Below are positions 28,333 to 62,589 of a DNA stretch of 64,000 nucleotides, piece after piece; positions within the stretch are counted from its first letter, which is position 1, and each line of letters starts with the position of its first letter. This stretch comes from a virus. The notes beneath the pieces were generated by a model. It was not told the DNA's origin and did not search any database. It saw only the letters and a list, made by a program, of their open reading frames with translations. A program made the position numbers and the translations under genes. The stretch covers positions 1 through 64,000 of the IMG/VR virus record IMGVR_UViG_3300030060_004796, one strand, 5' to 3'.

Positions 28333-28340
28333 CTCAAATA

Positions 28341-28372: not shown

Positions 28373-28391
28373 TAAAGTAAACTGTAACTTA

Positions 28392-32429: not shown

Positions 32430-32432
32430 ATT

Positions 32433-37961: not shown

Positions 37962-38008
37962 ACTTTAAAAGTGTACTGATATGATATTAACAAACTATAA
38001 AAATTTAT

Positions 38009-38016
38009 TATCTTTG
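38009..38016 (+). promoter_or_regulatory. Canonical Bacteroidota -7 element TATCTTTG
   Basis: Exact TAnnTTTG match ending 4 nt before the ATG at 38021. Confidence 0.6.
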
Positions 38017-38020
38017 TAAT

Positions 38021-41000: not shown

Positions 41001-41437
41001 CATCTGATGGTAAACATGATGCAAAAGGTTTTGCTAACTTCTTACAAAATGGTATAACTATAACTCTTCCACAAGATAAAGATATTAATCCTTATAAATC
41101 TACTAATCAATTATTATCATTTACTGACTTAGCAATTAAAGATGAAGGTAATTACACAAGTACTCCTATTCTTAATGGTGGTCATTATACTATCTATAAA
41201 AACTCACAAGGTCAGTATGTACAAGAAACAACTACTTACTTATTTGATGATAATACAGGAGGTATACCAGCACAAACAACAGTTAGTCAGGTACTGCCTG
41301 TAGATCCTAGTCAATTAGACATGTTAGTTATTAATATGGATGAACGTTTATTTCAACTTCAAAAGCAAAATCTTAATAAGAAAGCTGCGTGGGAGAAAAA
41401 AAATAAAGGTAAGACAGAACCTAATAATGCTCAATAA
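38021..41437 (+). CDS. Internal cargo / ejection protein
   Basis: 1138 aa, no Cys, helical N-terminus; lies directly before the virion RNAP as in crAss-like phages; EF-hand-type loop at 39470. Confidence 0.6.
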   Translation: MATYIKGVTDYIPVLEAFKPDYKFLSDVLTVRQDRYDTNYKQLNNLYSKVVHAPLSREDNQEQREQYANTLSNGLKQVSGLDLSLQQNVDVAKGLFKPFFEDKAVVKDMAFTKSYQKQMQQANTFMTSSSEKMRDKYWQIGVQDLKYQMDDFKNKDANWALSAPMPAYVENPNIYERSFESLKDSGLKIKQTTLEGDWIITTQNGTALTRQIVGYEKGEDGKLDPNKPIIRNPAGEHLKNTVMKDPIVTRGLLTEAKVKGRQFSEDPANIQKYGSSEKALEFWAQDILSTQTKKDQEDLVVAEQEVKSESIAARNWENYKKKHGIIPGTPEDEMYLKAMFNKQLVVQNRDALKSRVTNQKGPASDMDQLLNKAYAAYMGSVMGPKMTQAAIAYSQIDAEQTFEANPFKKMEYQHRFDLNKMAIQYQYDIGKIQARHIADMELQQLKNQGAGLGGNDLAGMLGITGGMQTKDGDANISGSLAGVDIDGDGEIDDDERSWVDVFAQNQNDLTQLLNSADQADISFVEKLIASNSDDMVGVGGYLGGGQIKYTYYKDATSEGVEKTADIATAFSDLTDQSNAGYQRNSLEFGRIVKNVRGKYENIIQLEDGSALNYDLANLNMDYGNAAQIHELYNSTKNTRTRINEKVEEMNNVYKTVQDYQLTKDKKIFAGGSYGYVENTHPPVLLTQGQIDMLNKGVMWHDVKYASDNGNIKEPVLDGSGQPVYRRVSEDEYATIFANMMNLQTHQRNQLIGGSQDRDDHEFLVYENRGLLDDYETEAEKYWNVDYVSLAGSGQQVMDMEDLDTEWQFDREKALKDGRKKYETLNNGLNAIMSDKGAAGRGQTYDLRAEIIGQEITGAPGETAYNQYTSVFDPASPSQVSIGQLRSLIFGMNNTPNQNVLKTISIGDNRTLTTAEIGHGKDAEYGNVLAQKIYDKYIESLVTNKTDKTQGRPFVGISYVEKVSGPEQPDDERVAGYHLNFGADYANTFKGMFVTSDGKHDAKGFANFLQNGITITLPQDKDINPYKSTNQLLSFTDLAIKDEGNYTSTPILNGGHYTIYKNSQGQYVQETTTYLFDDNTGGIPAQTTVSQVLPVDPSQLDMLVINMDERLFQLQKQNLNKKAAWEKKNKGKTEPNNAQ

Positions 41438-47400: not shown

Positions 47401-50400
47401 GCTGATATTAATTATACAAATGAAGTTAAGATTAAGGAAGAAATAAATGGTCCTAGTACAACAGGAGGTACAATGACACAAACAACTCCTTATGGAACAG
47501 AGCAAGGCCCAGAAGTACAGCTACCAAATACTACAAAAGAAAATGCTTATGAGATTCCAAAATCAAAGTTTACTATACCAGAAGTAACTAGTAATGAAGA
47601 TAGATTAGCATTAATAGAAGAAACTTTAACTGAAGACCATAAGCGTACAGTAGCTTTAATGCGTGAAAAAAATATTGCTCCAGAAAAAATAGAGAGTTTT
47701 ATATTTAGTAAAGCTAAAGAAACAGGTCAAGGAAATAATCTATTAGTGGATTTTGAAATGGAAGACATTTTAAATAATCCAAAAGAGTATAGTGAAGCAT
47801 TAGTAGTTAATGCTATGAGAAGAAGAATAGATGGAAGTAGTCCTATTAGTAGTGGTAGTGCTGAATCTAGAACAGCAGAAAATCTAGCAGAAATTAAACA
47901 AGATATACAACAAGGAGAACAGTTTAATAAAACTTTTAGTAATGAGAATGCTGCTGGTAGATATAGAGCTGGTGAAGGTTATGTAGCATTTCAAGGAAAA
48001 TATAGAACTGGTCAAATAGGATTGCGAAGATTGGCATATGAATCACTTATTGATTTAGGAATTCTTGAAGGTATTGACAATCTAACAGAAACTGAAATAA
48101 CAGATGAACTATGGGCAGAGTTAATGGAGCAAGAGTTTAAGAATCTTCCTGAAGGTATCTTAATGCCTATAAGAAGAAAGATTGCAAACTCTACACCACT
48201 TACACCAAGAGAAAGATTAATTATTGACGCATTAGAAAGTCAAGGTAAAAATATACTTGATGGAATAACTTCTGAAGAAGCTGCCACTCAAAAGAATGAA
48301 GATAATTTACAAGCAGAGTCAGGTAATCAAAATATATTAGATCAAATATCTAAAAAAAGAAATGAAATAGCTCAAGCTAAAGATAAAGTAGAAAGAGAAC
48401 TTACAGCTCAAATACAAAAAGCAAATCCAGAAATGTCTAAACCAGAAGTAGAAATTCAGGTTAATGAGATGATGGAGCAAGATGATGAGATTAAAAAGTT
48501 AAATACTGAATTAGCAAAATTACAATCTAAATTAGGGTATAAAATATTACCAGAATTTGATGGGAATGATGTTGAAAATATTGACAATTTTATAGACTGG
48601 GTTAAAAATAATTTACCAGAAGCTATTATGGTTGGTGATATTGATGATTTAGGTAGAAGATTAAAAGCTAATGGTGTAACTATTGGTGCGTTTGTTATGG
48701 AACTATCTAAGGTTTCTGGAGGAATAAAAGATCTTGTAGGTAAAGTATATGTAGGAAAACAATCTCCATTTAGATACCATGAGGCATTTCACGGTGTATT
48801 TAGAATGTTACTTACTGATGCTGAAATTAAAAAATATCTTGGTGTAGCTAAGAATGATGTACGTAAAAAAATGCAAAGCTCTAAAGGTTATGAAATACTA
48901 CCTGGAGTGTTTGTTAAAAATATGAATCAAGCTAGAATAACTCTAAGAGGTCTAGCAAAGTCATATGCTTTAATGGACAATGCAACATTAGATGAAAGAA
49001 TTTATGAAGAATATCTAGCTGATGAGTTTGAAAAATTCAAAACAAATCCAAGATCTTCTAAGGTAGGATCTGAAGTTAAAAGTTGGTTTACACGTTTATT
49101 AGAATGGATCAAAAATATTTTCTTAGGATATAACTCTTCAGAATTAAATGACTTATTTACAAGTATAGATTCTGGAAAATATAGAGAAGCAGGTATTCAA
49201 GAAAATGTATTTACAAGAGAAGCTATGCAAGAAATTGCTGAAGGAGGTGTAGTTACTTCAACAGCTTTGAAAGCAATTAGAAAAGGAGATCCTATTGAGT
49301 CAGTAAGGCCTACTGTTAGAAACGGGGTAGTAATTCCTGATGGAAGAACAATCTATATAAATAATTATTTTACAGCTAAAGAGACAAATGGAATAGTTGC
49401 AGAAATAGGAGCTATGTATCTCAATAGATTAGATACTCTTGCTGATGATCCTAATTTTACAGGAGAATACAATCCTTCAGCAATACTTGACCAAACAATA
49501 GATGAGTATATAGAAAGGTATAATTTTGCTAGAGCAACGGAAACTTCTGACGGAACTAAAAATTATTACTATGCTGGCAAAATAAATAGACAGACTAGAG
49601 AAAAATTAAATGAAAGATATAAGTCATTAAAGCAATATAAATCTGATGTTAAAGATTCTGTTACAGAATATCTAGAATTGTTTGATGAAGATGTTACATC
49701 TGAATTAGAAGTTTTAGAAAAAATTGATATGGATTCTGGAGGTCAAGTTAAGACAACAGAACAATATGAAAAAGATGCAAATGAAATAGGAGGATGGAAA
49801 TCATTAAGTAAAGGTGTACGTAAATTTCTTGCAACTACAACTAAAGAAGTGAAAGATGAGTTTACTGGAGAAATAGTTTCTGTTCCAGTTGATTATATTA
49901 CAGCATACAATGCGTTAATGAAATCTTTATCAGGTATGACTAATATACATAGTATGCTTGTTAAGTTAAAATTATTCTCAGAATCAAGTGAAGATGCAAG
50001 AGCAGTTATAGATGCAATCTTTACTAAAGCTAATCTTTCTAATATTACACTAGAGGATTTTATAAATGGAAATTATAAGCTTGATCAAGTAACTAATGAA
50101 GTTTTCTTCCAAGGTATTATAAAAGCATTTTCACAATTTAGAACGGATTATTATTATTTAGAAACAGATGTAGAAAAAGGACTTGTAAATATATTTAAAG
50201 CAAATCATAGAGATGATGCTCATACTCAAACTGATAAATGGCAAGGAAATTATACAAGTAAATTAGAGAATTTAAATACAAATCCTAATGCTCTTAGTGC
50301 TGCACAAGATCCTTGGGGTAGTATTGTATTTAATTCTAATAAAGAATCAATTAAAGAAGAAGAGTTAAATACAACATCAAAAAGAATTCAAAGACAAATA

Positions 50401-53400
50401 GAAAATAGTATAGGTTTTAATCTTAGTTGGATGACTGTTAAATATATGATTCTATCAAACGGTATTCAAAATAAAACAGATGCTCAAGCAAAATTCTTAA
50501 ATACATTTAAAAGTGAGATAGAATTTAATTTAGATGATGTTTCTCAAATTCAAACAGCTATTTCAAATCATGGACTTACAAAAGATAACCGTCAAACTGG
50601 AAACTTATTTTATGATATGAATGAAGTTTCTGTTGAGGAAGAAGAAAATGAAGTTAATGCAGAAGGAACAGATGTAAAATCTAGAATTAAAAAGCTAGCA
50701 AAATTAAATGCAATTTTTGATGACACAGTAGGTGCTACAGTATTTAGGAATCCAGAAGGAAAACTTATATATGCTCATCAAATGCCAACTTATGATCTAG
50801 AGAAAATAGCAGAATTAAATAGTGAAGATGCTATAGATGAGTTAATGAACAGTAACAGATTCTTAAATTCTAACTATTTATTAAATGATCCTAGATTTAG
50901 AAAACTAGCTGCGGATGGTAAGCTAAGAATATCTAGAGTAGCTGGACAAAAAATAGTAGACTTAAATACTGATAGTGAAGGTAACTTTAAAGCATCTAAT
51001 GGTATTGATCTAAGTAGAAGAGCTGTAACATTTGGAGATTCTACACCTAAAGATTTTTTATCTCAAATGATAAATCTTTATATAGCTGACTATAATAATT
51101 TAAACGGTAAAGTTCCAGAAAATACGTATAAAGCTGAAGATGATTTTGGAACAATGATAGACAAACCATTTACTACTTCATTAGTTAATGTTACAGTAAT
51201 TGCAGAATCTAACACAGCTGACTTTGTACCTATACCTATTATAACCGCAGTACAACTAAAGAATGGAAAATCTACAATAACTGATGAATATGTAGATGAT
51301 GTTATGACTGAAGTTGAAAATGAATATAATAGAATTCAACGTGAGGTACAACAAACAGAAGGATATACAGAAGACAACCTTAAAGGATATAATGAATTTA
51401 CTTCTGTTGAAGATATAAATGATGAAGATGCTAAAACAGATAGAGCAGCTAAATTTGGAACTACTGCTGAACTATTAAAAAGCAAGAAGAGAACTTCAGA
51501 AACAATTAGAGAAGTTGGAGATGGTATTGAGTTTGCTTTAGGTCCTGCTGAAGTAAAGTCAGCAAAATCCGGAACAAGTATAATACTAAGAGAAGTTGGA
51601 CATAATAATAAGAAGCTGGGTCTTAATCAAGATGAGTCAGTAAGAACTCCTATTTATACTTTAAAAAGTAAAAAAGAAACTGAAGAAACTTATTCAGTAA
51701 CATATAAAGGTGTAGTTTCTGTAGAGTCATATTCTGTAGATACTATAAAAGAAATGTTAAATGAGGATTGGTCAGAAGCAAAAGATGGTACTCATACTCA
51801 TAAAGTAAAGCTTGGTGATGAATCAATATGGGTTAGAAGTGCTAGACAAAGAGATTGGATTAATGGCAAAAAAGATCTTGAAGTATTTGAGGTTATACCT
51901 TCTTCAAAAGTAGAAACGGAGATAACAGAACTAGGTGAGGAAATAATAACAACTGAAGATAACGTATTAAAAGAACTACAAAGAATTGCAAGAACTGAAG
52001 TTGATGATAAGGGTAATCCTTTATCATTTGATGAAGCACTTAAGATGACTAAAGAAAAGACAGGAATTGATCCTAGAGCATTAGTTATTCAAAGATTAAA
52101 TCAAGAGTTTGAAGAGTTTATGGAAGTTATAGGTCCGGGACAAACAGGAGCTATCAATCAAATAGATAAAAGATTAACTAGCAAACTAACAACAGCAGAG
52201 GGAAAAACAAACAAGAATACAGAAAGATCAATGGTTCTTCTTAATCTTGAAAATAACAATACAGATAATCACAACTTAAAACAAATATTTTTTAATGATT
52301 ATCTAAATAGAATATCTATTAAACAAATTCTTATGGGTGATAGAGCTTTAGGTCTTAAGGATGTTGTGGATGAGATCAAAAGAATGAAAGCCTTAAATGC
52401 TGCTGGACCAAGTGCTGAAAGTGTTATTTATGCTCCTGAAAAAGGAGTGATGCATCCTACTAAACATATTAGTCTTATAACTATGACTGATGTTGAGACT
52501 CCTTCTAAATATAATACAAAAGGCAAAGAAGGTAAAGTTACTGAGACTGATGCTCAAATGTGGGGAACTACTAAAGGGTTTAGACATACAATGTTTGGAT
52601 TTGGAATGCTTAATTCTGCACAAGCTAAAATATTAGACAAGATAGAAGCAGGAGAAGATATTAGTATAGATGAATTTTATGGTGCTGGAGTTTCTAAAAA
52701 TGGATATAAACAATTAGGTGCTATTTTAAATTCTCAAAAACTTGTTTATTTTGATGGAGAAGTATTTCTAAAGATGTCTAATATTGTATTAACTAAGGCA
52801 TTGACTTCTGATCCACAAACTAATTTCCAAACTGCTCTTCCAGGAAGAGAAGATATGCATAATCTAAGATTAAAGCTAGAAAAGATAGAACAAGAAGGTG
52901 ATCAAACTATTGCTTTTGCTGTGCCTGAGTCTGCTTCTAAAATGGTTAAAAGAAATGTTATAGATTATACAAGAGCTTTTGATGCTAATTTAGAATTAAG
53001 TCCTGAAAATATTTCTAGCCTTGATGCACGTTGGATGAGATTACAACAAGTTAATCCATCTAATAAAGAAATCATTATTGATCCAACACAAATAAAACAA
53101 ATCATCACAAGTGAGCAAGATGATAGTGTTCAAGTAATGTTTGCTGGAGAAATGATCCCAATAGGAAAAATAAGAGAAATCTACAATGATGCTGTAAGTA
53201 ATAGAGTTGAAATTAAATATCTAGATAGAAGAAACTTAATATTTGATTTCCAAATAGGACAAGATGAATTACAAGCAAGTATTAAGAAAGGACAAGTAAC
53301 TCCTGATCTATCTGCATTCTTAGAATACGCAAAAAATAGTTTAGCAGCATCAGGTGCAAGAGCACAATTTATGGAATTATTTGAAGTGGATAAAGCTGGT

Positions 53401-56400
53401 CAGCCAAAATATGATCTAAACAATCCTATTACAATCAATAAATTCCAAGAACTATTTATGTCATTCTTCACTAAAGGTGTAATGAGTGAAAAGGTAAGTG
53501 GTGAATCAGTTGCATTAGTATCTGGGCAAGGTATGAAAGTAATTAAGAAGGTTAAACAATTAGATCCTGTAACAGGTCAACCTATTGAATGGGAAGTTAT
53601 TAGAATGCAAGACTACGCTAATCTTAAAAATAGACCAGAAATAAAGTATCTTAATTATACAGATGTTGCTAATAAGACATTTGCAGATATGAGAGTAGGT
53701 GATTTATATGTAGATGAATTAAAAGCTAATGTAAAAGAGTATGATGAAAATGGAAAGGAGACAGGACTAGTATATTCTGAAATGATGTTGCCTGCACATC
53801 ATTCATCATTAAAAAATATTAAATCAGGACAAAAGATTCCTGATGTTGTATCAAAAGCATTTGCTACACGTATTCCATCACAAGATAAACACTCTGCAAT
53901 TAATCTTAGACTTGTAGACTTTATGCCTGTATTTTATGGATCTTCAGGAGTATTCCCACCAGATCTTATTGAAATATCTGGGGCTGACTTTGATATTGAT
54001 AAACTATATGTACAATTTAAAGAGTTTTATAGACAAGATGGTGAGTTTGTTGAGTATGGAAAAACAAAAGATACTGATAAACAATATGAAGAGTACCTTA
54101 GATATAAGCAAGCAGAGTCTAAGCAAAAAGGTACATCTATGCATATGGCTGTACAGAAGTGGAATAATAGAGGAAGAATTATTGATATAGATTTAGATGC
54201 TGATGTTTCTCTTCCTTCTGAAGAAATTATTGGAGGATTAAGATTGCTAGATCTGCCAGTAACAAGAGAAGAGTTTGCAGAATACCTAAAGAAAAATAAT
54301 AATAGACTTCCATATTCTGGAGCACATAGTAATAAAGCATTGGATGCTAAGTATGCTTTATTAGGAAACGAAGGAATGACAGAAGGTAGAAATGGTAGAG
54401 ATGTTGGAATTGCTTATGAGCCAGCTGTATTAGATCCTTTAGAAGATGTATGGAGCTTTATACAAAAAGAACTTCCGGAATTAGCAGAACAGGTTCAAGA
54501 AGAAGGTGTTATAGTAGATAATATGCTTGGTATGTATAGAGCATGGAAAAACAACAAAGAAGGTGCTAATTCTATTGGAGCTATTGTATTACCTAATATA
54601 GTATTAAATTTACTTAAAGAATACAAGGTTGATTTAAGATCAAAAACTTCAAACGGCAAAAGAATTTTAGGTGGTAACTTAGAACTTAATGGTATTCAGT
54701 ATAAAAGTTTTAAAGGAGATTATGCTATAAATCCTGAAACTAAAAAACCAGATGTAAATGGTTTAAGAAAACAATTTGTAATATCTGCTTTAGTTACAGC
54801 TGCAACAGATAACGCAAAAGAAAGATTGCTTGCAAAACTTGGTTTAAATAAAGATGCATTAGCTACTGTTGGTACATTACTAAGTGTTGGTGTAGATATT
54901 AATACAGCAATATTACTTATTAATCAACCAGATATAAAGCGTATGTATGCTTTAGTTGCTAATAAAGAAAAGCCTACTGATCCAGGAATGGACTCAATGG
55001 TCAAAAGAGAACTAGAAGCAATTTTAGCAGAAGATGCATTAGCAGAAAAAAATTCTAAAAAAGTTAATGTTGATAGTGAATTATTAATAAGACACATAAA
55101 AGGTGGAGAAGTTGCTACATATGAAAGATTTGCTATATTAAAACAATTCCAAGAAGCTAGAACTTTAAAAGAAAATGTAGGCCATCTTCAAGCATTAGTA
55201 ACTAAAGTAGCAGGTTTAGGTAGAGGCATGAAAGAAATGTATGATTCTTTTGAAAGCTTTGAAAAGTTAGGATCTGAACTTAACAATGTACAATTTGGAA
55301 AAGAAGAAATTCCTTTTGACTCAAGAGAACTATTTAAAGGAAAAACATTCCAAGCAACATACTATAAAATATTCCAAAATATACAACAATTAACACCTAC
55401 TGTATTCTTAACAGAAACAGATGAGTTTAGAAAAATTACAAGTGCTATTATAGCAAACATGAAAGATCAGAGTCCAGAAAGGGTTCAGAAAGTAAAACGA
55501 GATGTTCTTTCTTATATGATTGGAAAAGGATACACAACTTATCTTGGTAAAGTAGGAAAAGCAACTCTAGCAGCATCTTTACAAAACGGAATGATATATG
55601 ATGAGTTTGCTGATGGTCTTACAATAGTAGATGTAATAAATGAAATTAAAACTCTACTAAAAGGTAAATCAAATTACTTTATAGATCAATTTGTATATGC
55701 AAAGGATACAAGAAATCCAAATAATAAGTCAGGTATTAATCAAGCTGTATCTAATACATGGGGTAGAATTGGTGCTGATCAAATGACAGTTATTCAAAAT
55801 AGTCTTAGAGAATTATATGCTGATGAAAATATTAGACACAACGTATATCACTTACTACATTATGAATTAGTTAAGAATGGATTACAATATAGTGAAGGTA
55901 CATTATTAAGTGCATTCCCAGCAGCTATGTTAGATGAATTATTATTAGTATCAGAAACTATTAAGGATACATTTAATAATGAGATTGTTACTAATGAAAT
56001 GTATAACAAATTATTTGGAATGTCTTTTGATGAATTAATTTCAGAAGTAACAGAAGGTTATTTACAGAGTAGAAGTAATGTATACTATACTCCTGAAATA
56101 AAAAAGACAAAATCTGAAGCTCTTACATATAATAAAGAAGAAGGTATATTAGATGTTAGTAGATACAGCAGACGTAAACCTAGAAGTAAGAAGAAAGGAA
56201 AACACAAAAGAAAAGGTACAGGTAAAGTATTTGATGGAGTACTTAGAAGAGCTGGTTTTGAACAACAAGAAAATGAATTTGAATTCCCTCTAGTTATTAC
56301 AATGAATGTAGGAACTAAAAGGAAGCCAGACTATAGGACTTTCAAGCTTGAAGAAGTATATTCAACTAACAAGATTGAAAAAACAGAATTATCTGATCCG

Positions 56401-57030
56401 AGTTTCACACCACAAATGATAAATGTTGATACAGACTTTGGAAAAGCTACGGGATATAGAGCAGTATATAAAGAGTTTGATACATTTGGATCTATGCAGC
56501 AAAATGGAATGGGATTCATGTGGGGTGATAGATCAACATACCAATATTTACAAGATGAAATAAACAAAACAACAAGTGCTGTTGAAGATGGAAATCAACA
56601 ACAAGATGATATGATTAATAAACTTGCTAGTCAAAAACAAAAATCTCCAATAGGCCCTGGAACAAATGTAAATATTAATGCAACAAATGATTCAGTGAAA
56701 ACATCAGATAATAATAATAATCCTGTATCTTTGTCTAAGATTCAAAAACTAAGTGAAAAGGGAGAACCTGATTTTGATGCAATCATAAAGAAGGCTGCAC
56801 CAGCAACAGGTTTAAAGAAAGAAGCAATGAGTGAAAATGCTACTCAACCTGGAGAAAATAAAGTTTTAGAAGATTTTTATAATAACTTAACAAAACTTGA
56901 TAAAGCAATGCTTGCTAAAGCAGCAGATATATCTAACATAGAAGAGTTAATAGAAGATTTTAATGATCCTAATAATCAGTATAATGAAGAGGATTTTATA
57001 GAGAATCTTAAAAAATGTTATAGTAAATAG
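41449..57030 (+). CDS. Giant virion-packaged DNA-directed RNA polymerase (crAss-like, two-barrel) with fused zincin protease domain
   Basis: Catalytic 'SGADFDIDK' (53986-54000) preceded by 'RIPSQ' (53869), the signature of the phi14:2 gp66-type RNAP; zincin 'HEAFH' (48778-48792) plus 'YEEYLADEF'. Confidence 0.92.
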   Translation: MADQENFDANVNSTENALDMNSIVNTDDMQVPSFNSDIVDQVLPGTDHVIPEVKPSVDMGNPVYPDIEGPGTGIVNFEEPYPGNFNYDTELFEDVVDQAIEIQGMPNLEMNQPFFDMIDRAAIDIDKYPIMFSNNDMNAAYPGRAGTDFDPFRTSTGIPDLSTQNGIKAFLSSAVDVTKQIKGPDKTPGYRDPFHYSARDYDLDRYYRHPRFSDLGFHPMADNEAYYQANSSKWDNFTRTRSAYMDMFGPAFTSGWRSIGQMFTGETLQSDMIGAMAMDDAMRVGRSTSGGTRGFFNDLFLNSAYTMGIISSIAVEELALFGAAALQGGLNPAADAALIGRTGMNIGRVLQAIKRMFTVGERGAAGTRMLAKMRNLNNVKAFMTAAKAGGKSTGRFFAHVFGPETLYQYKKFKTAAKAGDNFTQMAKAAGYAGGLYRDFRAINLAWAESKMEAGLVEMELQKSLYEEVMALKDGEDPSVKEMEMIVSDARAAALTTSLINMPIIYASNKLVLDGALRGFKPLGRIMDESLSGPFGRILFRKGLKENPFVDMGKKWIIGENMRRMWKAGFKASWKHMGATALRYSTANFAEGIQELAQEATSHGVKSYFTSLYDSPMGIANDVHLAQMTQAHQAGTESMYGNYTHTDRISGMTAAEAISKGAASQWSGQGLHTFMSGFLMGGIVQGPQRLMFDVTPNVLRWGKDKVMKTTDYADYRAKRDKEIGNAVDTLNKVYADPKKYFDITKLNAMTQKELNSAMFKAAGADDITSFMDYKDHGVFSALYTVMATGNLNNFTEQLKDFKNLDDTALKEAFSSVSSTPEKIRARIDKMLTRAEEIKKGYNKMKDEFVNPFNPDRYKKDSRSYHEEQLRQIAFEHAKMMAMFTQTTFEQSLERANDIYNTLSSDPVLGSISESDIRALTSREGLAKEIALLEKEVELGAKTKEEKEILARKKKKLELLKNYSEIFNDSSNQASTNGQMYSELFEMDGKTYKTKSMNIGRYDKRKMGKLKPAFVAYLQFLAETNDDLVINDKIIPTLKKIIDFGYLKGRASDYAQAANVLMNPGNLYEMTDRLAAIMGEAWEQHKNKNNLTLKLKKYHDQTIRRQFLKDLADDMIQPDPDQTVAFLEEGIMPTDFYDGTPGSEGLITKSSDPLKWATIEGLKENYYEATKVDKGETTDATKEERRQAESETSEGTQAEPDFESVTGRSKYQQFLQKDKDTREIIERKYKEYKSTWNSEQGPLMSKNEWAASPQGGKNIIKSRYELDQMYQAEPAEVKDKYPTLEDWIIANKKNPLIAGTNGILTKNNVGISDVSVNLSKETGVQRDKLDGNQKVIATDKATGLSVIEVTNYDDNNNKDVQYYISDKDPQNRVWKTYENLNPKGKQVIRSGYVKKTDAVKAYNYILRNMPSDTVFEFGKDDQGMPIKWTTSDIVLDSADNEYIVRSNPKMVRRNNNLYVVPIGKAKAKKGEDERVYITEDEWRTQGWKKKEESKLDIGTTIQKLSSFEPVKIYPFDGSKVLFGKFKNHPVPEEGAELSFDDVLRSLSEEDRKNITFLVEKNPAYDQYLQDLESGSLQPYQGDPRFDPNPAIRKGQNKYEVTIMLGNRPIGKMMGVGIATLVDPKTGQKIDGHKITTEQTERIFRLNGRDAADVAAMVRRNYAKANLITREIENRIGTKSSTVIKISSLQDIELNVLPGYTGWYVDNDNNPINPRSPGAKKNAKRASTPWADIPQSYNNYDGELIIYDTKRSRDSGRRSSTKVWSIDPSSARGKTISNEITNYIQKKGLLSVGQLGSGRYLQFVKLPNGTIHHFELKLDPLSEESLNDIAVDIKNKQQELIGKAYNEKGKLNKKQAVLTRDKINQELAESFYILSNIVGDDIEIYFKETGEMMFKVEREDSKVTIALEEKFFELITDGKSLIETINNEFKRVEADKAKRDKKFKKTNFNLTMESFSPSIPANLTDPTQLVDSGVSARVIATVSWGQLADINYTNEVKIKEEINGPSTTGGTMTQTTPYGTEQGPEVQLPNTTKENAYEIPKSKFTIPEVTSNEDRLALIEETLTEDHKRTVALMREKNIAPEKIESFIFSKAKETGQGNNLLVDFEMEDILNNPKEYSEALVVNAMRRRIDGSSPISSGSAESRTAENLAEIKQDIQQGEQFNKTFSNENAAGRYRAGEGYVAFQGKYRTGQIGLRRLAYESLIDLGILEGIDNLTETEITDELWAELMEQEFKNLPEGILMPIRRKIANSTPLTPRERLIIDALESQGKNILDGITSEEAATQKNEDNLQAESGNQNILDQISKKRNEIAQAKDKVERELTAQIQKANPEMSKPEVEIQVNEMMEQDDEIKKLNTELAKLQSKLGYKILPEFDGNDVENIDNFIDWVKNNLPEAIMVGDIDDLGRRLKANGVTIGAFVMELSKVSGGIKDLVGKVYVGKQSPFRYHEAFHGVFRMLLTDAEIKKYLGVAKNDVRKKMQSSKGYEILPGVFVKNMNQARITLRGLAKSYALMDNATLDERIYEEYLADEFEKFKTNPRSSKVGSEVKSWFTRLLEWIKNIFLGYNSSELNDLFTSIDSGKYREAGIQENVFTREAMQEIAEGGVVTSTALKAIRKGDPIESVRPTVRNGVVIPDGRTIYINNYFTAKETNGIVAEIGAMYLNRLDTLADDPNFTGEYNPSAILDQTIDEYIERYNFARATETSDGTKNYYYAGKINRQTREKLNERYKSLKQYKSDVKDSVTEYLELFDEDVTSELEVLEKIDMDSGGQVKTTEQYEKDANEIGGWKSLSKGVRKFLATTTKEVKDEFTGEIVSVPVDYITAYNALMKSLSGMTNIHSMLVKLKLFSESSEDARAVIDAIFTKANLSNITLEDFINGNYKLDQVTNEVFFQGIIKAFSQFRTDYYYLETDVEKGLVNIFKANHRDDAHTQTDKWQGNYTSKLENLNTNPNALSAAQDPWGSIVFNSNKESIKEEELNTTSKRIQRQIENSIGFNLSWMTVKYMILSNGIQNKTDAQAKFLNTFKSEIEFNLDDVSQIQTAISNHGLTKDNRQTGNLFYDMNEVSVEEEENEVNAEGTDVKSRIKKLAKLNAIFDDTVGATVFRNPEGKLIYAHQMPTYDLEKIAELNSEDAIDELMNSNRFLNSNYLLNDPRFRKLAADGKLRISRVAGQKIVDLNTDSEGNFKASNGIDLSRRAVTFGDSTPKDFLSQMINLYIADYNNLNGKVPENTYKAEDDFGTMIDKPFTTSLVNVTVIAESNTADFVPIPIITAVQLKNGKSTITDEYVDDVMTEVENEYNRIQREVQQTEGYTEDNLKGYNEFTSVEDINDEDAKTDRAAKFGTTAELLKSKKRTSETIREVGDGIEFALGPAEVKSAKSGTSIILREVGHNNKKLGLNQDESVRTPIYTLKSKKETEETYSVTYKGVVSVESYSVDTIKEMLNEDWSEAKDGTHTHKVKLGDESIWVRSARQRDWINGKKDLEVFEVIPSSKVETEITELGEEIITTEDNVLKELQRIARTEVDDKGNPLSFDEALKMTKEKTGIDPRALVIQRLNQEFEEFMEVIGPGQTGAINQIDKRLTSKLTTAEGKTNKNTERSMVLLNLENNNTDNHNLKQIFFNDYLNRISIKQILMGDRALGLKDVVDEIKRMKALNAAGPSAESVIYAPEKGVMHPTKHISLITMTDVETPSKYNTKGKEGKVTETDAQMWGTTKGFRHTMFGFGMLNSAQAKILDKIEAGEDISIDEFYGAGVSKNGYKQLGAILNSQKLVYFDGEVFLKMSNIVLTKALTSDPQTNFQTALPGREDMHNLRLKLEKIEQEGDQTIAFAVPESASKMVKRNVIDYTRAFDANLELSPENISSLDARWMRLQQVNPSNKEIIIDPTQIKQIITSEQDDSVQVMFAGEMIPIGKIREIYNDAVSNRVEIKYLDRRNLIFDFQIGQDELQASIKKGQVTPDLSAFLEYAKNSLAASGARAQFMELFEVDKAGQPKYDLNNPITINKFQELFMSFFTKGVMSEKVSGESVALVSGQGMKVIKKVKQLDPVTGQPIEWEVIRMQDYANLKNRPEIKYLNYTDVANKTFADMRVGDLYVDELKANVKEYDENGKETGLVYSEMMLPAHHSSLKNIKSGQKIPDVVSKAFATRIPSQDKHSAINLRLVDFMPVFYGSSGVFPPDLIEISGADFDIDKLYVQFKEFYRQDGEFVEYGKTKDTDKQYEEYLRYKQAESKQKGTSMHMAVQKWNNRGRIIDIDLDADVSLPSEEIIGGLRLLDLPVTREEFAEYLKKNNNRLPYSGAHSNKALDAKYALLGNEGMTEGRNGRDVGIAYEPAVLDPLEDVWSFIQKELPELAEQVQEEGVIVDNMLGMYRAWKNNKEGANSIGAIVLPNIVLNLLKEYKVDLRSKTSNGKRILGGNLELNGIQYKSFKGDYAINPETKKPDVNGLRKQFVISALVTAATDNAKERLLAKLGLNKDALATVGTLLSVGVDINTAILLINQPDIKRMYALVANKEKPTDPGMDSMVKRELEAILAEDALAEKNSKKVNVDSELLIRHIKGGEVATYERFAILKQFQEARTLKENVGHLQALVTKVAGLGRGMKEMYDSFESFEKLGSELNNVQFGKEEIPFDSRELFKGKTFQATYYKIFQNIQQLTPTVFLTETDEFRKITSAIIANMKDQSPERVQKVKRDVLSYMIGKGYTTYLGKVGKATLAASLQNGMIYDEFADGLTIVDVINEIKTLLKGKSNYFIDQFVYAKDTRNPNNKSGINQAVSNTWGRIGADQMTVIQNSLRELYADENIRHNVYHLLHYELVKNGLQYSEGTLLSAFPAAMLDELLLVSETIKDTFNNEIVTNEMYNKLFGMSFDELISEVTEGYLQSRSNVYYTPEIKKTKSEALTYNKEEGILDVSRYSRRKPRSKKKGKHKRKGTGKVFDGVLRRAGFEQQENEFEFPLVITMNVGTKRKPDYRTFKLEEVYSTNKIEKTELSDPSFTPQMINVDTDFGKATGYRAVYKEFDTFGSMQQNGMGFMWGDRSTYQYLQDEINKTTSAVEDGNQQQDDMINKLASQKQKSPIGPGTNVNINATNDSVKTSDNNNNPVSLSKIQKLSEKGEPDFDAIIKKAAPATGLKKEAMSENATQPGENKVLEDFYNNLTKLDKAMLAKAADISNIEELIEDFNDPNNQYNEEDFIENLKKCYSK

Positions 57031-57036
57031 GAAAAT

Positions 57037-60000
57037 ATGGCAACAAAATGTTATAATAGAAATAGTGCAGAGTATCAAAGTCTACAAGGAAAACTTGGTA
57101 AAAATATTTTTGTAGATAGTGTTATTGACAAGTGGCAAAAAAGTAATAACTCTGATATGATACCTACTGTGGAACAGGTTGATAAATTTTTAAATCAACA
57201 AAAAACTATGCTTAATCTTAAGAAGAGAGAGTATAGTGAAGCTGTTCTTGCAAACTTATCAAACAAAGGACTTATAAGTAAGTGGAATGGTGAGTACTAT
57301 ATAAATGTAACTGAGCCAGGTCAAATAGAAAGAATAGATAGAAAGGTTGCTGAATTAAATAGAATAAAAGCACTTAGATTATTAAAACTATGGGGTGTTA
57401 ATCCAGAAGCAATAACTATGGAGAGAACAGATAAAACCTATAGAGTTGATATAAATCCAAACATATTTACAAAGGGAGATCTGATAGCTCAAGATAATAT
57501 TAAAAATCATACACATGTTTTAGATATTCTTGAACACATGAGTGATTTATTTCCTCAACTAAATATTCAAGTAGCAACAGTAAAAGAAGCAAGAGAATAT
57601 TACGACAACTTAAGTGAAGAACAAAAAAGAAAAGTATCATTTGATCAGATTACAAGTTACTATGTAAAGGGTACAGTAATGATTATTAAAGGTAGAGTAA
57701 CACCAGAAACTGCTATTGAAGAAGTGTTACACCCTTTTGTTGATGCTGTATATCTAGAAAAGAGAAGTTTATTTGATGGACTCCTAAAGGAAGCAAGAGA
57801 AATGTTTCCTCAATTAAGAATGGAGGTAGATGCAGAGTATAATCAAAGAAGAGGTTTTTCTCAACGTGATAGAGATCTTGAATTAGTTACTCAAGCATTA
57901 TCTAGACATTTCAAAAGAGAATATGAAAATGAACCAACATCAAGTTGGAGAAGTAAAATAGCTCAACTATTAAAATTCTTATTAGATGTTATACAGGATC
58001 TAAGTGCTTTTGTATCTGGGAAAAGATTAGGTATATCAGCATCTATGCTTAACTCTAATAATACATTAACTAGTATTGCCAAACTTCTTAATACTCAAGA
58101 TCTACAATTTAAGTTTACAACAGATTCAGTTTTAGATACAAAAGTTAGATACTCTTTAACTCCAAAGTTAGAAGCAGCATTAAATAAATATAAAGATTTT
58201 GCAACAGAGCCAATTCAAAAACAGATAATAGATAACCTATTTCATAAAGCTCTTAGTAATAAAGAAATATTTCCTGATTTTACTGCAGGAAGTCCATTGA
58301 CTGGAACTGAAACTCCTTTAGTAGTACTTGATAAAGATACTCATGTCTATAAAAATGTAGAAACTCTTGAGGTATATGATTCAACAACAACAAAAATAAA
58401 AGGTAAGTTAGATGATGATGCTGGTTTATATAAAATCAATAGAGATATAGGTAATGACTTTGATATGATAATGGAGTTTTTAGCACTGCAAGAAGCTAAT
58501 GAAGCTGAGGCACTTGAAATTCTATTACCTAAAATGAAAGTTCTTGATAGAGATGCAACAATAAGGGCTATTTCTAAAATGGAAGATAAGCTTGCAGAAT
58601 ATAGAGAAGCAGGTGCTGTTATAATTCCACAGGTAGTAGTAGCAGATGCAGCGTCTAAAACTGCTGGTACTATAGATCTAATGGCTATTCATAAAGATGG
58701 TACAATACAAATAATAGATTTAAAGGTTAGTAAGAATTCTATTAATACAGATATGTATGATAGACTATTTCCTGTAAATGAAGGCAGTATTTGGTATGAT
58801 CCTTCACTAAAGAAAAATGAGCAATTTGGATTAACTACAAGAATGCAGCAAGGTTTGCAGGTTAATACTTATAGAAGAATGCTTATTAATATGGGATATA
58901 CAGTAGATCCTATTAGTAAAACTTTACATTTTAATGTTGATGTAACAGGTAAAGGAAAGAAACAAGAGTTTAAGGGTACCTTTAAATTTGATGGTGAGGT
59001 TAATCATCCATCAAGTCAAGCATTAACACAGGTTGATGAACTTGTTCCTTTAAATCCAGATATAAAACATAAGGAAACTATGGAAGAGGATCCTTATATT
59101 ACTGAAGATGAGGCACTTCCACAAGATGATGTAATAGAAGAAAGGATTTATGCAGCTCAAGTAGAAACTGTTAAGCAGTACAAAGACAAGCTTGTAACAA
59201 GAAGAGAGGTAATTGAACAACTATTAGATAGAGAAAAACAAACAATCTTCACTAAAAATTTACTAAACAATATAGATAGGGCTATCACTGACATTAATGT
59301 TGCTATAACAGAAGGAAGAGCTGATATTGTTTATGAAGAATTATTACAACAAAATATAGAAGAGCTAAAACAATTTATAGAATATGTAGAAACTGGTGAT
59401 AAAACTAGTTCTGAATATATTGATATGGTTTTAAAAATGGAAGATATAGCAACTACATATGCAGGATTAGATGTAGTAAGTCTTCCAGAAGGTATATCTT
59501 TAGGTAATAAAAAAGAGGCACTTAGAAATACTCTAAAAGAACTTGTTGATAAAATTAGAGGTGATGGAGCTTATACTAATAAAGGACTTGTTGATGAAGG
59601 AATTTACCAACACGTAAGAGAAATATATAAAGCAAATACAAATAGAACAGATCTTACAGATGCAGAAATAGATAAGATAATGTCTGAGATGGAAGATATG
59701 AGTTCTATAAATTATGGTACAAGTGATTTAGCTACAAGTAGAGATCCTTTATCACAGATAATGGATAAGCTATATAAAAGACAAGTTCAAAAAACAATTG
59801 ATAAAGTTGAGGAAAGAAATAGAGAACTAAGAAGGTTAGGTACAAAGCTGGAAAAGTTATCATCAGGTAAAGTTGATTTTAGTTATATGTTAAACTTTGA
59901 TAAGGAGGGTAATTTTAAAGGAACTTATGTAGAACAAATAGGACCACAATATGATGCCTTATTCAATGAAGTTAGAGCAGAGTTAACTGATGACAGAGGA

Positions 60001-62589
60001 GAATGGAAAGATTATATTGTTAAGGCTAATTTAGAAGATTACACAAAAGAAGAACTTGAATGGAATAAAAAAATAAAAGCTGCAAGAAGAAAGTATGCTC
60101 AATTAATGGAAGCAGAATCTGTTGTAGATGAAAGAAGAGTGGATGGTAAATACCATAAATATAATGCTGAATTTAGAGCTGCTAGAGAAGAGGTTTTAGA
60201 ATTTCGTTATAATGCAGATAGTACATGGGGATGGTGGCAAGCTAAAAGAGGTGTTTCATCAGTAAAAGTTAATGAGTTTTACCGTAAATACTATGAAGAA
60301 AGTGTAGTTACTAAGGTTAATGAAGACGGCTCTGTTTCACAAGTGACTTCAAAAAGGTTTCCAAAAAGAGATTATGTAGAAAAAAGAACTACATCAAGAG
60401 GTGGAAAACTTAATGATATGGTCAACCCTAAGTATGAAAAAATTATGAATCCTGATCCTACTAATTCATTGGCATTAGCACAAAAGGAGTTTTTTATATT
60501 TTTCCAAAAAGAATTTTTAAGTTTATTAGATAAACTTCCTAGTAGTGTTAGAGATCAAATGATAGGTAGAATACCTGTTGTTAGAGATAATGCTCTCACT
60601 CAAATGAAAAGAGAAGGAGGTTTAATTGCAGGATTAGCTTCTAGAGCTTCTAGAGGTTGGAAAAATTTATGGAGAACAACATCAAGACAAGAAAAAGTAA
60701 TAGTTGATGCACAAGGACAATTCATAGATACACTACCTATATTCTATGTTGGTCAACCACAAAATGAAAAATTATTAGAATCTATTGATGATGAATTACA
60801 ATTATTAGAATCACAATACAAAGAAAAGAAAATAAAAATTGATGAGTATAAAGAAAAGAAAAATGGATTAATAACAAGAAGAAATGATCTTCAGTCTAAA
60901 CCTACATTGAATCAAATGAGTTTAGATATGGTAGATAATCTATTAAGATTTTCTGCAATGGCTGAGAACTATGAAGTAATGAATGAAATCAAAGGTACTC
61001 TTTTAGCATTTCAAAAAGTTATTGAAAATAGAAATTATTCTCCTTCTGGAACAAAACGTCTTTTCTCAAAGATTAGAGGTAGAGATACTACAGTAGGTAT
61101 GGGTCAAGAATCTAATATAACTGCTAGAGCAAGAAAGTGGATGCATATGGTGTATTATAATAATGATAGGCAAACAGAAGGTGCTCTAGATAAAATTTCT
61201 AAAAACTTAATTCAATTGTCATCATTAACATATGTAGGTTTAAACTGGTGGGGTAACATTAATAACTACGCAATGGGTAGAATGAATAATGCTATTGAAA
61301 CTATTGGTGGTAGATACTTTGAACCAGAAGCAATGTTAAGAGCTACAAAAGTATTTCAAGGAGCTGCAATGCAAGATGTTGTTAAAAAAATGGGTAGCAG
61401 TTCTACTTGGGCTGGTATAACTGGAGGTAAAGGTGCTTATGAAGATTATATACCTGAAAGTAAATATAACGGATTGGTTGGATATTTTAGAATGATGGAT
61501 GATATGGCAGATCTACGTGAGCAAGGTAGAGCTAAAGGTAAGGGTGGAGTTGTTAGAGAAGCAATGTCATGGGCATATTTATTCCAAGATGGAGCAGAGT
61601 ATAATGTTCAAACTAAAGTTGGTATGGCAATTCTTATGTCAACTAAAATGCAAAAACTAGATGATGCAGGAAAAGTATTAGATGAGATGTCTTTATATGA
61701 TGCCCTTCAATACAATAATAAGACTGGTGATGTAGCTTTAAAAGACGGTTATGATACTATGGTAAAGAAGAATGGTACTAAGGTTAAGTTTGATGATAAT
61801 GCTAGATATGATCTTAGAAATAATATCCGTGAAGTAAACAAACAAATTCATGGTAACTATGCTCATGCTGATAGAATGATTATTCAACAACACTTCCTTG
61901 GTCAGTTAGCAGCTCAGTTTAAAAAATGGGTAGCTCCAGCTATTAAAGCTAGATATAGAAGAGAATACTATGATGAGAATCTAGGTTGGATGGAAGGACG
62001 TTATAGAAGTGCTTGGTCATTTGTAGGATTTCTTTTTAAGGAAAAAGCTAGCATAAATAAGACTGTTAAAAGAATGAAATATGAGTTTGGTGATGAAAGA
62101 GCTTTAAATAAGATTCAAGGTATGAAGAGAACTCTAGCAGATTTTACATTTATGATGGCATCTTTTGCAATGGCTATGATCATGGATGCATTATTTGATG
62201 ATGATGATGAAGATAAAAATGTACACAGAAAAAGATTTGAGAATGCGTTAGTCTATCAATTTAATAGACAAGCAAGAGAGCTTATGTTCTTTACTCCATT
62301 TGGACTTAAAGAACAATTCTATATGACAGATTCTCCTATTGCTGTAACAAGAATGATGGGAGATATGGGTGACGCTGTAATTGCTACATTCAAAGTACCT
62401 CTTGCATATAGTTATCAGCTAGCAAGTCCGGACTATGATATAACAAAAGATAAAGCTATATATTATCAAAGAGGTCCTAGAAAAGGAACAATGAAAGTTT
62501 CCAAAGAATGGAGTGATGTTATACCATTACTTTATACGATCAATAGATATAGAGCCTATGACACTGTTAAAGATTTCTGGGTTAAGTAA
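57037..62589 (+). CDS. Internal cargo protein: degenerate zincin, PD-(D/E)xK nuclease domain and helical ejection-type C-terminus
   Basis: 'AIEEVLHPF' (57718); 'AGTIDLMAI...IIDLK...QQGLQVNTY' (58663-58870). Confidence 0.75.
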   Translation: MATKCYNRNSAEYQSLQGKLGKNIFVDSVIDKWQKSNNSDMIPTVEQVDKFLNQQKTMLNLKKREYSEAVLANLSNKGLISKWNGEYYINVTEPGQIERIDRKVAELNRIKALRLLKLWGVNPEAITMERTDKTYRVDINPNIFTKGDLIAQDNIKNHTHVLDILEHMSDLFPQLNIQVATVKEAREYYDNLSEEQKRKVSFDQITSYYVKGTVMIIKGRVTPETAIEEVLHPFVDAVYLEKRSLFDGLLKEAREMFPQLRMEVDAEYNQRRGFSQRDRDLELVTQALSRHFKREYENEPTSSWRSKIAQLLKFLLDVIQDLSAFVSGKRLGISASMLNSNNTLTSIAKLLNTQDLQFKFTTDSVLDTKVRYSLTPKLEAALNKYKDFATEPIQKQIIDNLFHKALSNKEIFPDFTAGSPLTGTETPLVVLDKDTHVYKNVETLEVYDSTTTKIKGKLDDDAGLYKINRDIGNDFDMIMEFLALQEANEAEALEILLPKMKVLDRDATIRAISKMEDKLAEYREAGAVIIPQVVVADAASKTAGTIDLMAIHKDGTIQIIDLKVSKNSINTDMYDRLFPVNEGSIWYDPSLKKNEQFGLTTRMQQGLQVNTYRRMLINMGYTVDPISKTLHFNVDVTGKGKKQEFKGTFKFDGEVNHPSSQALTQVDELVPLNPDIKHKETMEEDPYITEDEALPQDDVIEERIYAAQVETVKQYKDKLVTRREVIEQLLDREKQTIFTKNLLNNIDRAITDINVAITEGRADIVYEELLQQNIEELKQFIEYVETGDKTSSEYIDMVLKMEDIATTYAGLDVVSLPEGISLGNKKEALRNTLKELVDKIRGDGAYTNKGLVDEGIYQHVREIYKANTNRTDLTDAEIDKIMSEMEDMSSINYGTSDLATSRDPLSQIMDKLYKRQVQKTIDKVEERNRELRRLGTKLEKLSSGKVDFSYMLNFDKEGNFKGTYVEQIGPQYDALFNEVRAELTDDRGEWKDYIVKANLEDYTKEELEWNKKIKAARRKYAQLMEAESVVDERRVDGKYHKYNAEFRAAREEVLEFRYNADSTWGWWQAKRGVSSVKVNEFYRKYYEESVVTKVNEDGSVSQVTSKRFPKRDYVEKRTTSRGGKLNDMVNPKYEKIMNPDPTNSLALAQKEFFIFFQKEFLSLLDKLPSSVRDQMIGRIPVVRDNALTQMKREGGLIAGLASRASRGWKNLWRTTSRQEKVIVDAQGQFIDTLPIFYVGQPQNEKLLESIDDELQLLESQYKEKKIKIDEYKEKKNGLITRRNDLQSKPTLNQMSLDMVDNLLRFSAMAENYEVMNEIKGTLLAFQKVIENRNYSPSGTKRLFSKIRGRDTTVGMGQESNITARARKWMHMVYYNNDRQTEGALDKISKNLIQLSSLTYVGLNWWGNINNYAMGRMNNAIETIGGRYFEPEAMLRATKVFQGAAMQDVVKKMGSSSTWAGITGGKGAYEDYIPESKYNGLVGYFRMMDDMADLREQGRAKGKGGVVREAMSWAYLFQDGAEYNVQTKVGMAILMSTKMQKLDDAGKVLDEMSLYDALQYNNKTGDVALKDGYDTMVKKNGTKVKFDDNARYDLRNNIREVNKQIHGNYAHADRMIIQQHFLGQLAAQFKKWVAPAIKARYRREYYDENLGWMEGRYRSAWSFVGFLFKEKASINKTVKRMKYEFGDERALNKIQGMKRTLADFTFMMASFAMAMIMDALFDDDDEDKNVHRKRFENALVYQFNRQARELMFFTPFGLKEQFYMTDSPIAVTRMMGDMGDAVIATFKVPLAYSYQLASPDYDITKDKAIYYQRGPRKGTMKVSKEWSDVIPLLYTINRYRAYDTVKDFWVK

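Follow-up and report, generated by a model that had tools for sequence, protein, structure and literature searches.

No phages of the human gut are more abundant than crassviruses, which are also common in the sea. They pack about 5 MDa of protein cargo (PMC10172136; 10.1101/2020.03.07.982082), and our subject is a pair of cysteines (Cys) that face each other across the junction of two giant genes for such cargo. The window, by which we mean the whole stretch of DNA analysed, is the 64,000 nucleotides (nt) at positions 1 to 64,000 of the IMG/VR virus record IMGVR_UViG_3300030060_004796 (source record 120,198 bp), in which an open reading frame (ORF) of 5193 amino acids (aa) carrying the motif of a virion RNA polymerase (RNAP) precedes one of 1850 aa; each product holds a single Cys, close to the end that faces the other. 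The pair belongs to a rule for which we found no earlier paper on crassviruses: a Cys pair at every split between the cargo modules, and none at fused joints or outer ends.

The closest described cargo is that of PhicrAss001 and phi14:2. PhicrAss001 gp47, gp49 and gp50 are virion cargo proteins, present in about six copies each and thought to exit partly unfolded via the tail (Bayfield et al. 2023, PMC10172136), while phi14:2 gp65, gp66 and gp67 are all virion proteins, fused forms of which have been noted in other phages (10.1101/2020.03.07.982082). A DFDxD-type motif has been described for the virion RNAPs found in crAss-like phages, 'single huge polyprotein' forms have been noted and the fusions have been suggested to be cleaved into their components (10.1101/2020.03.07.982082). 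The crystal structure of phi14:2 gp66 is available (Drobysheva et al. 2021), the protein having been purified and crystallised with dithiothreitol or tris(2-carboxyethyl)phosphine (10.1101/2020.03.07.982082). Crassvirus virions do contain intermolecular disulfides, namely in the gp57 dimer and between the tail hub and the ring proteins (PMC10172136). The word 'cysteine' is absent from both of these sources (PMC10172136 and 10.1101/2020.03.07.982082), in which 'disulfide' is used only for capsid and tail proteins, and a full-text search combining crassvirus with cysteine or disulfide found no paper on terminal cysteines in crassvirus cargo.

Two further systems provide points of comparison. The ejected proteins of Schitoviridae (DEV gp71-73 and N4 gp50-52) are almost free of Cys, which has been explained by their unfolded passage through the periplasm (PMC11445570). 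In cyanophage A4 (Anabaena phage A-4L), gp27 and gp26 are ejection proteins of the pre-ejectosome (Hou et al., PNAS 2025, PMC12002296; PDB 9K2V, 9K3A), and a disulfide between Cys1715 and Cys5 was seen by cryo-electron microscopy, with the C-terminal helix of one protein docked in the interdomain cleft of its partner (PMC12002296). In the A-4L record, the 1717-aa gp27 has Cys1715 (position -3, counted from the C-terminus) as its sole Cys, and the 1114-aa gp26, which starts MSKHC, has only Cys5.

Comparison of the locus with known cargo systems

The cargo proteins can be described by three modules: A, which bears a zincin motif and resembles PhicrAss001 gp47; B, a DFDxD RNAP like gp50 and phi14:2 gp66; and C, which resembles gp49 and gp65. 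According to lineage, one, two or three genes encode them. By sequence comparison, the 5193-aa protein is a colinear fusion of modules A and B, and the 1850-aa protein is module C. BLAST aligned residues 2443-2581 of the former with gp47 2156-2293 (1e-4) and residues 4089-4193 with the catalytic region of gp50 (1387-1496; 1e-12), and its RNAP region also matched p-crAssphage gp44 (6e-11) and phi14:2 g066 (9e-5). The 1850-aa protein matched PhicrAss001 gp49 (1e-23), the 2007-aa protein of cr1_1 (8e-23), the C-terminal part of p-crAssphage gp44 (8e-17) and phi14:2 g065 (2e-14). The initial annotation, made from the DNA alone, had called the larger product an RNAP protein, and this label is justified by the GADFDID motif at residues 4178-4184 together with the BLAST matches to gp50 and g066. 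Residues D4180, F4181, D4182, I4183 and D4184 are invariant in 27 homologues, as are Y2443, H2444, E2445 and H2448 around the zincin motif of module A; the same HExxH is found at residue 2157 of 2341 in PhicrAss001 gp47 and at 1743 of 1957 in p-crAssphage gp45. The virion location of A, B and C is known by mass spectrometry for phi14:2 and PhicrAss001 only.

The locus thus shares with phi14:2 and PhicrAss001 the homologous modules, the HExxH and DFDxD motifs, a gp49-like C, a position of the block after the ring and muzzle genes, and the same rule for terminal Cys. It differs in that A and B form one 5193-aa polypeptide, leaving one Cys pair instead of two. The likeness to Schitoviridae lies in a giant virion RNAP with co-ejected proteins that are nearly Cys-free, as in the cargo block here. 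In Schitoviridae, however, the purge is complete and the polymerase is a single polypeptide, whereas crassviruses keep Cys on the ends that face a neighbouring module. With A4 the locus shares consecutive genes for large proteins that would be kept inside the capsid and ejected, and lone Cys near the facing ends; the start of A4 gp26 (MSKHC) may be compared with MATKC in the 1850-aa protein and MSKRC in PhicrAss001 gp50, and the docking predicted below gives the same picture as the A4 structure. A4, in contrast, is a 42-kb Saffermanviridae phage that lacks a virion RNAP, it has one link only where crassviruses would have a chain, and its bond was reported as a structural detail with no rule tied to gene fission or fusion (PMC12002296). 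No BLAST match better than E 0.05 connected A4 gp26 or gp27 with the crassvirus modules. Neither phmmer with both giant proteins nor a profile of 95 module C sequences retrieved a relevant match among PDB sequences and chains, and the A4 chains were not listed in the fold searches, although a missing fold match is not evidence of difference.

Lone terminal cysteines and their conservation

Cys5190 is the sole Cys of the 5193-aa protein, which ends ...LKKCYSK before a TAG stop, and Cys5 is the sole Cys of the 1850-aa protein, which starts MATKCYNR; a recount thus confirmed both of the single Cys reported by the initial annotation. The 5193-aa ORF has one TGT or TGC codon in frame, compared with 72 and 288 in the other two frames, so selection, and not base composition, has removed Cys codons everywhere but at this one site. 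Under uniform placement, the probability that two lone Cys fall this near adjoining ends is about 2e-6. This post hoc figure agrees with the earlier view that the arrangement exceeds chance, but the decisive evidence is conservation in relatives.

For the downstream family (C), 120 cluster representatives with 34-94% identity over the first 500 residues were compared. The N-terminal Cys lies at residue 3-5 in 119 of them (at residue 8 in two with likely mis-called starts), within the motif M-x(1-3)-C-[YFPI]-N-[RK]-N, and in 109 proteins it stands alone; other Cys amount to 16 in 228,701 residues, and C5 is invariant in a 95-row alignment. In the upstream family (A+B; 30 representatives, down to 23% identity), 29 proteins have a Cys in the last four residues, which in 27 is the sole Cys of about 5000 residues; the consensus end is ...EExFIExxKKCYx, with C5190 invariant in the alignment. 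An independent HMMER search, in which the A-B joint region was the query against 1.8 billion representatives, provided 89 proteins of at least 4000 aa: 84 have a Cys in the last six residues and three more at 7-9 from the end, the first 12 residues are free of Cys throughout, and 52 of the proteins contain a single one. Wherever a single fetched stretch holds both genes, as in 15 loci (L001, L002, L006, L018-L028 and L034), the two Cys are present. The IMG/VR scan gave three loci and the metagenome scan 12, from a narrow clade. The conservation of terminal Cys in homologues, which had been put forward as the check to make, was therefore borne out by a wide margin (119/120, 29/30 and 84/89). 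The residue before the Cys is often basic: it is K or R in 65 of the 119 N-termini, and 20 of the 29 C-termini have K (19) or R (one). A preceding basic residue would favour a reactive thiolate.

The same data bear on the possibility that the pair reflects chance, composition or a signal in the DNA (the 11-mer, translational coupling, TAG read-through or a recent 33-bp duplication) with no function in the protein. The two ORFs share a frame and are separated by one TAG and two codons, and the 11-mer AAAATGTTATA, which spans the K-C-Y codons, occurs at both sites in exact copies 33 nt apart. Stop-codon recoding is known in some crassviruses, and 38 in-frame stops are found in the A+B ORFs of cr4_1 and cr56_1. 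Relatives nevertheless keep both Cys in other codon contexts, with overlapping stop and start or in other frames; Cys pairs also occur between genes on opposite strands, and the other 16 plus-strand ORFs of at least 150 aa in the window read through under translation table 11. Given the conservation data, we regard this explanation as refuted for practical purposes, and its probability as negligible.

The initial annotation had also pointed to the repeated 11-mer. Its presence stands, with two occurrences in the window, but it carries no significance of its own: 0.30 matches are expected, and at least two were found in 5 of 100 shuffles. Codon bias is strong (AAA, TGT and TAT make up 78%, 94% and 85% of their codon families), the probability that two K-C-Y tripeptides share the same 9 nt by this bias alone is 0.44, and relatives at about 54% identity lack the shared 11-mer; the repeat is therefore best regarded as a by-product of two K-C-Y peptides, and we reject a 33-bp duplication or DNA repeat signal. 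As to reading frame, the two ORFs lie in the same frame, one stop and two or three codons apart, in the window and its nearest relatives (L018-L020 and L023). This does not hold for the clade of about 54% identity, where, as in L001 and L002, the stop and the start either overlap or lie in different frames. Read-through is therefore not a conserved feature, and read-through or recoding of the in-frame TAG was rejected.

Other roles for a terminal Cys were considered and rejected. Split intein halves are about 100 and 35 aa long, with a Hint fold and Cys at the splice junctions; with only 4-5 residues between each Cys and its terminus, such halves would not fit here, and neither Hint nor intein families came up in the Pfam scans. 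A CaaX-type prenylation box is at odds with the variable C-terminal context (CYSK, CK, CR, a bare terminal C and CNS); no hydrophobic leader precedes Cys5, against a lipoprotein signal; and the motif after Cys5 fits no family of N-terminal-nucleophile hydrolases, in addition to which this Cys is paired with a C-terminal one.

Cysteine pairs at module splits across Crassvirales

We read the homologous genes in 13 deposited crassviruses. This census is small and its counts ignore shared ancestry, but it spans three families in addition to marine clades at 23-40% identity. In all 13, wherever A, B and C are split, each of the two new ends carries a Cys. (i) Steigviridae (phi14:2, PhicrAss001, DAC15 and IAS virus) have three separate genes, A / B / C. 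In phi14:2, the sole Cys of g067 is its last residue and that of g065 is residue 3, whereas g066, the crystallised polymerase, has two, at residue 3 and position -2, so that A, B and C together have four Cys in 5398 residues, all on facing ends. PhicrAss001 has one Cys in gp47 (-3), one in gp49 (residue 5), and in gp50 a Cys at residue 5 and another at -9, plus one internal; DAC15 and IAS virus have the same terminal pattern as these two phages. (ii) Intestiviridae (p-crAssphage, cr110_1, cr8_1 and cr3_1) have A / B+C. Their A proteins carry a Cys at -1 or -2 and their B+C proteins one at residue 3-5 (counted from an internal MSC start in cr110_1), and no Cys is found at the C-terminal end of B+C. 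(iii) Suoliviridae have A+B / C, the arrangement in the window, and the Cys pair is present in five genomes. Six further proteins of 3292-4245 aa join a polymerase to an N-terminal domain like that of the 1850-aa protein, and in each of them one Cys lies at residue 3-6 and another is the final or penultimate residue. In PhicrAss001, DAC15 and IAS virus the A and B genes lie on opposite strands, which excludes a nucleotide-level signal tied to adjacent genes.

Fused joints, conversely, have no conserved Cys: the 5193-aa protein has none at its A-B joint, and the only Cys column common to four aligned B+C fusions is the N-terminal one. The earlier idea that the site might mark a point of fusion or splitting is supported by these data, as Cys pairs sit exactly at module breaks that are fused in other lineages. 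The outer ends are bare, with a Cys in the first 12 residues of none of the 30 A+B representatives and in the last 12 of one of the 120 C representatives.

This distribution also bears on the possibility that the two Cys have independent roles, each linking a third virion component (the portal, the capsid lining or a DNA-bound protein) or serving as a modification or packaging signal, the pairing being apparent only. Such a view draws on the fact that the link between the two Cys is itself inferred, on the other disulfide-forming proteins in crassvirus virions (PMC10172136) and on the loose position of the C-terminal Cys, which ranges from -1 to -12. A Cys for a third partner should, however, persist internally after fusion, which the fused joints contradict; the outer ends are bare, Cys always come as C-end and N-end pairs that match the order A-B-C, and docking of the two ends is predicted well above controls. 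We therefore consider independent roles quite improbable.

Two irregular sets of genes were encountered in this survey. In IAS virus (L014, NC_049978, 7138-16120), gp055, which starts MSLYC, shares an 11-nt overlap with gp056. The two look like a single module B gene that sequence errors have interrupted, the record having ambiguous bases (X in translation). In the Suoliviridae cr4_1 (L008) and cr56_1 (L010), the A+B and C genes have 18-38 in-frame stops under table 11, and the Cys rule holds.

Predicted docking of the two termini

A complex of residues 1-360 of C (95-row alignment) with residues 5044-5193 of A+B (19-row alignment) was predicted with ESMFold2. The complex score was 0.70 (runs 0.76, 0.43 and 0.70), compared with 0.08 for the best of three controls. 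Among solved complexes 58 of 80 attain that mark, as do 2 of 110 mismatched pairs; these counts are approximate, as custom alignments were used. The runs share at least 22% of contacts, with a partner pLDDT (predicted local distance difference test) of at least 53 (54-63). On the A+B side the predicted interface covers residues 5121-5191, including 5189-5191, and on the C side residues 3, 5-6, 20-32, 52-56, 117-124, 144-151, 161-186, 202-203 and 216-225. Prediction and the A4 precedent thus suggest that the C-terminal tail of A+B docks on the N-terminal region of C. The head-to-tail contact proposed at the outset is supported both by the predicted complex, which scored well above its controls, and by the structure solved for cyanophage A4.

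The AF2 model built for the first 400 residues of C (mean pLDDT 75) comprises helices at the N-terminus, a small alpha/beta portion and, at 157-350, a further domain. Foldseek found nothing at E <=0.001 in the PDB with this 400-aa model, and VIA-align of the 157-350 domain gave, as best matches, domains of anthrax lethal factor and PPEP-2/3, which are M34-type zincins (Z 5.5-6.6, middling; 133-155 residues aligned; root-mean-square deviation 3.9-4.7). Residues E228, E229, H232 and E252 (57718-57792) are invariant in all 95 aligned homologues. From its sequence, EExxH...E in C can be read as a gluzincin motif with Glu in place of the first His, and EEVLH...E252 may be an altered metal site or belong to an inactive protease; phi14:2 g065 has a regular HExxH at residue 245.

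A different chemistry for the pair can be envisaged around this domain. The two thiolates, with further ligands, could bind a metal at the docked interface, or they could form a cysteine switch that caps the neighbouring zincin-like domain until ejection, much as a propeptide Cys keeps the zincin latent in matrix metalloproteinases. A zincin or zincin-like domain adjoins every junction checked for one: HExxH lies about 185-255 residues before the C-terminal Cys of A in gp47, p-crAssphage gp45, cr110_1, cr8_1 and cr3_1, and the N-terminus of C has its HExxH in g065 or, in the 1850-aa protein, EExxH at 228, next to which lie the predicted interface residues 216-225. A thiolate-metal link would also be possible in the reducing cytoplasm and the anoxic gut, both unfavourable to disulfides. 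However, each terminus has one conserved Cys and neither has a conserved His, Asp or Glu nearby, the putative ligands at 228, 229, 232 and 252 are outside the confident interface list, and the first zinc-binding His is Glu in 95 of 95 aligned C sequences. Moreover, phi14:2 g066 and PhicrAss001 gp50 and gp49 lack HExxH yet have the N-terminal Cys, and the solved A4 case is a disulfide. A metal bridge or cysteine switch, although the main rival, therefore appears unlikely to us.

A proposed head-to-tail cargo chain

We propose a model in which the cargo forms a docked, disulfide-locked head-to-tail chain. The last 70 or so residues of A+B would dock into a cleft in the N-terminal region of C and bring Cys5190 and Cys5 side by side, and an intermolecular disulfide would form once the particle leaves the reducing cytoplasm. 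A+B and C would then become one head-to-tail chain of about 0.8 MDa, as if their genes were fused, the disulfide standing in for the peptide bond of lineages in which they are. Such a link would fix a 1:1 ratio and set the order in which the cargo lies in the capsid and threads through the tail, and reduction inside the next host's cytoplasm would sever it. We consider it very probable that the two Cys function together where the termini dock, and regard the full model, with its disulfide, as the favoured reading with a reasonable margin of doubt; the bond itself, the timing of its formation and its role in ejection or activation are the parts that would go beyond the pairing.

Several observations weigh against the model. 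The position of the C-terminal Cys is loose, as noted above, and that Cys is missing from P0156, P0230 and P0240, while the shorter matches P0193, P0214 and P0261 start without an N-terminal Cys. Both Cys5190 and Cys5 are listed in the predicted interface, but this is a residue list that gives no distance between them; one run of the prediction reached only 0.43, the partner pLDDT is modest (54-63) and custom alignments fall outside the calibration of the complex tool. The A4 precedent is an analogy, given that no sequence similarity is detectable, and a covalent bond in crassvirus cargo is inferred. The cytoplasm in which particles assemble is reducing, and the habitat of gut crassviruses is anoxic, so the disulfide may form late or never in nature. 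With regard to the exceptions, P0100 is also among the few representatives that lack a terminal Cys, the relative fetched for P0193 (L034) is a normal fusion that obeys the Cys rule, and the IMG/VR scan for P0261 found no locus.

Extended to the whole order Crassvirales, the model would make the RNAP cargo a redox-gated concatemer, in which each split of A-B-C is re-joined by a docking helix and one Cys per new end, threaded N to C and cut in the reducing cytoplasm of the next host, where a self-inhibited polymerase might perhaps be switched on. We offer this extension tentatively and give it slightly less than even weight. If it is true, terminal-Cys chaining would, together with cyanophage A4, be a general and convergent device of podovirus-like ejection systems.

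The Cys rule may also be set beside the polyprotein forms described for crAss-like phages. Here too the same modules are fused in various combinations and accessory domains are inserted (PF18760 ART-PolyVal, PF01743+PF01966 and PF13532), but the rule suggests a logic that is the reverse of cleavage, namely that separate components are re-joined after translation. It would explain how the same modules could fuse and split freely in evolution. The finding bears on cargo packing, ordered ejection and the switching on of the virion RNAP in crassviruses, and a conserved two-residue signature provides a concrete and cheap experimental handle. For annotation, terminal Cys pairs could mark which giant ORFs share one cargo chain, and in which order. 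The link to A4, the one solved case, suggests a broader principle among ejected proteins that avoid Cys elsewhere.

Genome context and further features of the cargo block

Judged from its genes, the window is the late block of a marine crassvirus, with ring, muzzle, Cys-poor cargo and then RNAP-associated cargo (Table 1). It has 32% G+C, 17 of its 18 distinct ORFs of at least 150 aa are on the plus strand, and its relatives come from Tara and other metagenomes (JGI and ENA).

Table 1 Features of the window at and around the cargo block
Feature	Position	Strand	Basis or note
Tail ring protein 2	12200-12871	+	PF25702 CrAss_Ring_2 (6e-18)
Tail ring protein 1	12871-13791	+	PF24228 CrAss_Ring_1 (3e-8)
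Muzzle protein	13805-22204	+	PF25731 crAss_MUZ (1e-26) and VWA
Four large Cys-poor ORFs, 2042/1345/1842/1138 aa, with 2/2/6/0 Cys	22204..41437	+	Between the muzzle and A+B genes
5193-aa cargo protein (A+B fusion)	41449..57030	+	ORF call, Cys count, BLAST
HEAFH (residues 2444-2448), zincin motif close to the end of module A	48778..48792	+	
DFDID catalytic motif of two-barrel RNAP, residues 4180-4184	53986..54000	+	
Predicted C-terminal docking tail, residues 5121-5193, ending ...EEDFIENLKKCYSK	56809..57027	+	Predicted interface
11-mer AAAATGTTATA, first copy (K-C-Y codons and flanking A)	57012..57022	+	
Cys5190 codon TGT, fourth residue from the end of the 5193-aa protein	57016..57018	+	Translation
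TAG stop and 6-nt spacer between the two ORFs	57028..57036	+	Translation
1850-aa cargo protein (module C)	57037..62589	+	ORF call, Cys count, BLAST
N-terminal region of C, residues 1-225, predicted receiver of the A+B tail	57037..57711	+	
11-mer AAAATGTTATA, second copy	57045..57055	+	
Cys5 codon TGT of the 1850-aa protein	57049..57051	+	Translation
Zincin-like domain of C, residues 157-350, with EEVLH at 228-232 and E252	57505..58086	+	
PD-(D/E)XK-like nuclease motif of C, GTIDLM ... IIDLKVSK, D547 ... D561-x-K563	58675..58725	+	Nearly invariant columns

The four ORFs between the muzzle and A+B genes are probably cargo or ejection proteins, judging from their sequences, and none of them has a terminal Cys. 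The six cargo ORFs (22204-62589) together have 12 Cys in 13,410 residues (0.09%), compared with 190 in 7,000 (2.7%) for the ORFs that precede them (636-22204). Cys-rich examples among the latter are the ORF at 3598-5976, with 41 Cys in 792 aa, and the muzzle protein, with 65.

The 2042-aa ORF (22204-28332) has three LysM domains and a YkuD domain, and its only two Cys form the CX4C of GTNGCINGTCSA (residues 1515-1528), within the YkuD match at 1359-1545. The only two Cys of the ORF at 28392-32429 likewise form a CX4C, TNNCADQTCTA (residues 822-834). In both ORFs these residues look, by sequence, like active-site Cys of cell-wall enzymes, in which case Cys would have been kept only where chemistry needs it.

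Within the 1850-aa protein, the PD-(D/E)XK-like motif points to a nuclease domain in a cargo protein associated with the RNAP, and PF12705 is present in some homologues. When both giant proteins were scanned against PHROGs and Pfam, there was nothing beyond a sub-threshold match to DUF6047 at residues 2-112 of the 1850-aa protein (E 0.002; 18.6 bits, cut-off 27), and tblastn with the C-terminal 497 aa had no match among cultured and deposited phages. Extra enzyme domains are found in the homologues P0155, P0169, P0172 and P0174-P0179, including PF01743+PF01966 (nucleotidyltransferase and HD), PF18760 ART-PolyVal, PF13532 (2OG-Fe(II) oxygenase), PF15518 and PF12694, which fits a 'polyvalent protein' theme.

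A phage-encoded redox partner was considered as a candidate and rejected: the only match is a sub-threshold thioredoxin-like one outside the window (G000:C1:68080-68217; 19.8 compared with 23.5 bits), and no glutaredoxin was found. In p-crAssphage (gp39 and gp37) and cr8_1, thioredoxin genes are annotated a few kb from the RNAP cargo genes. In the window, a gene for an SbcD/Mre11-like exonuclease (phrog_704, 4e-45) lies at 10442-11623, within an otherwise structural block on the plus strand.

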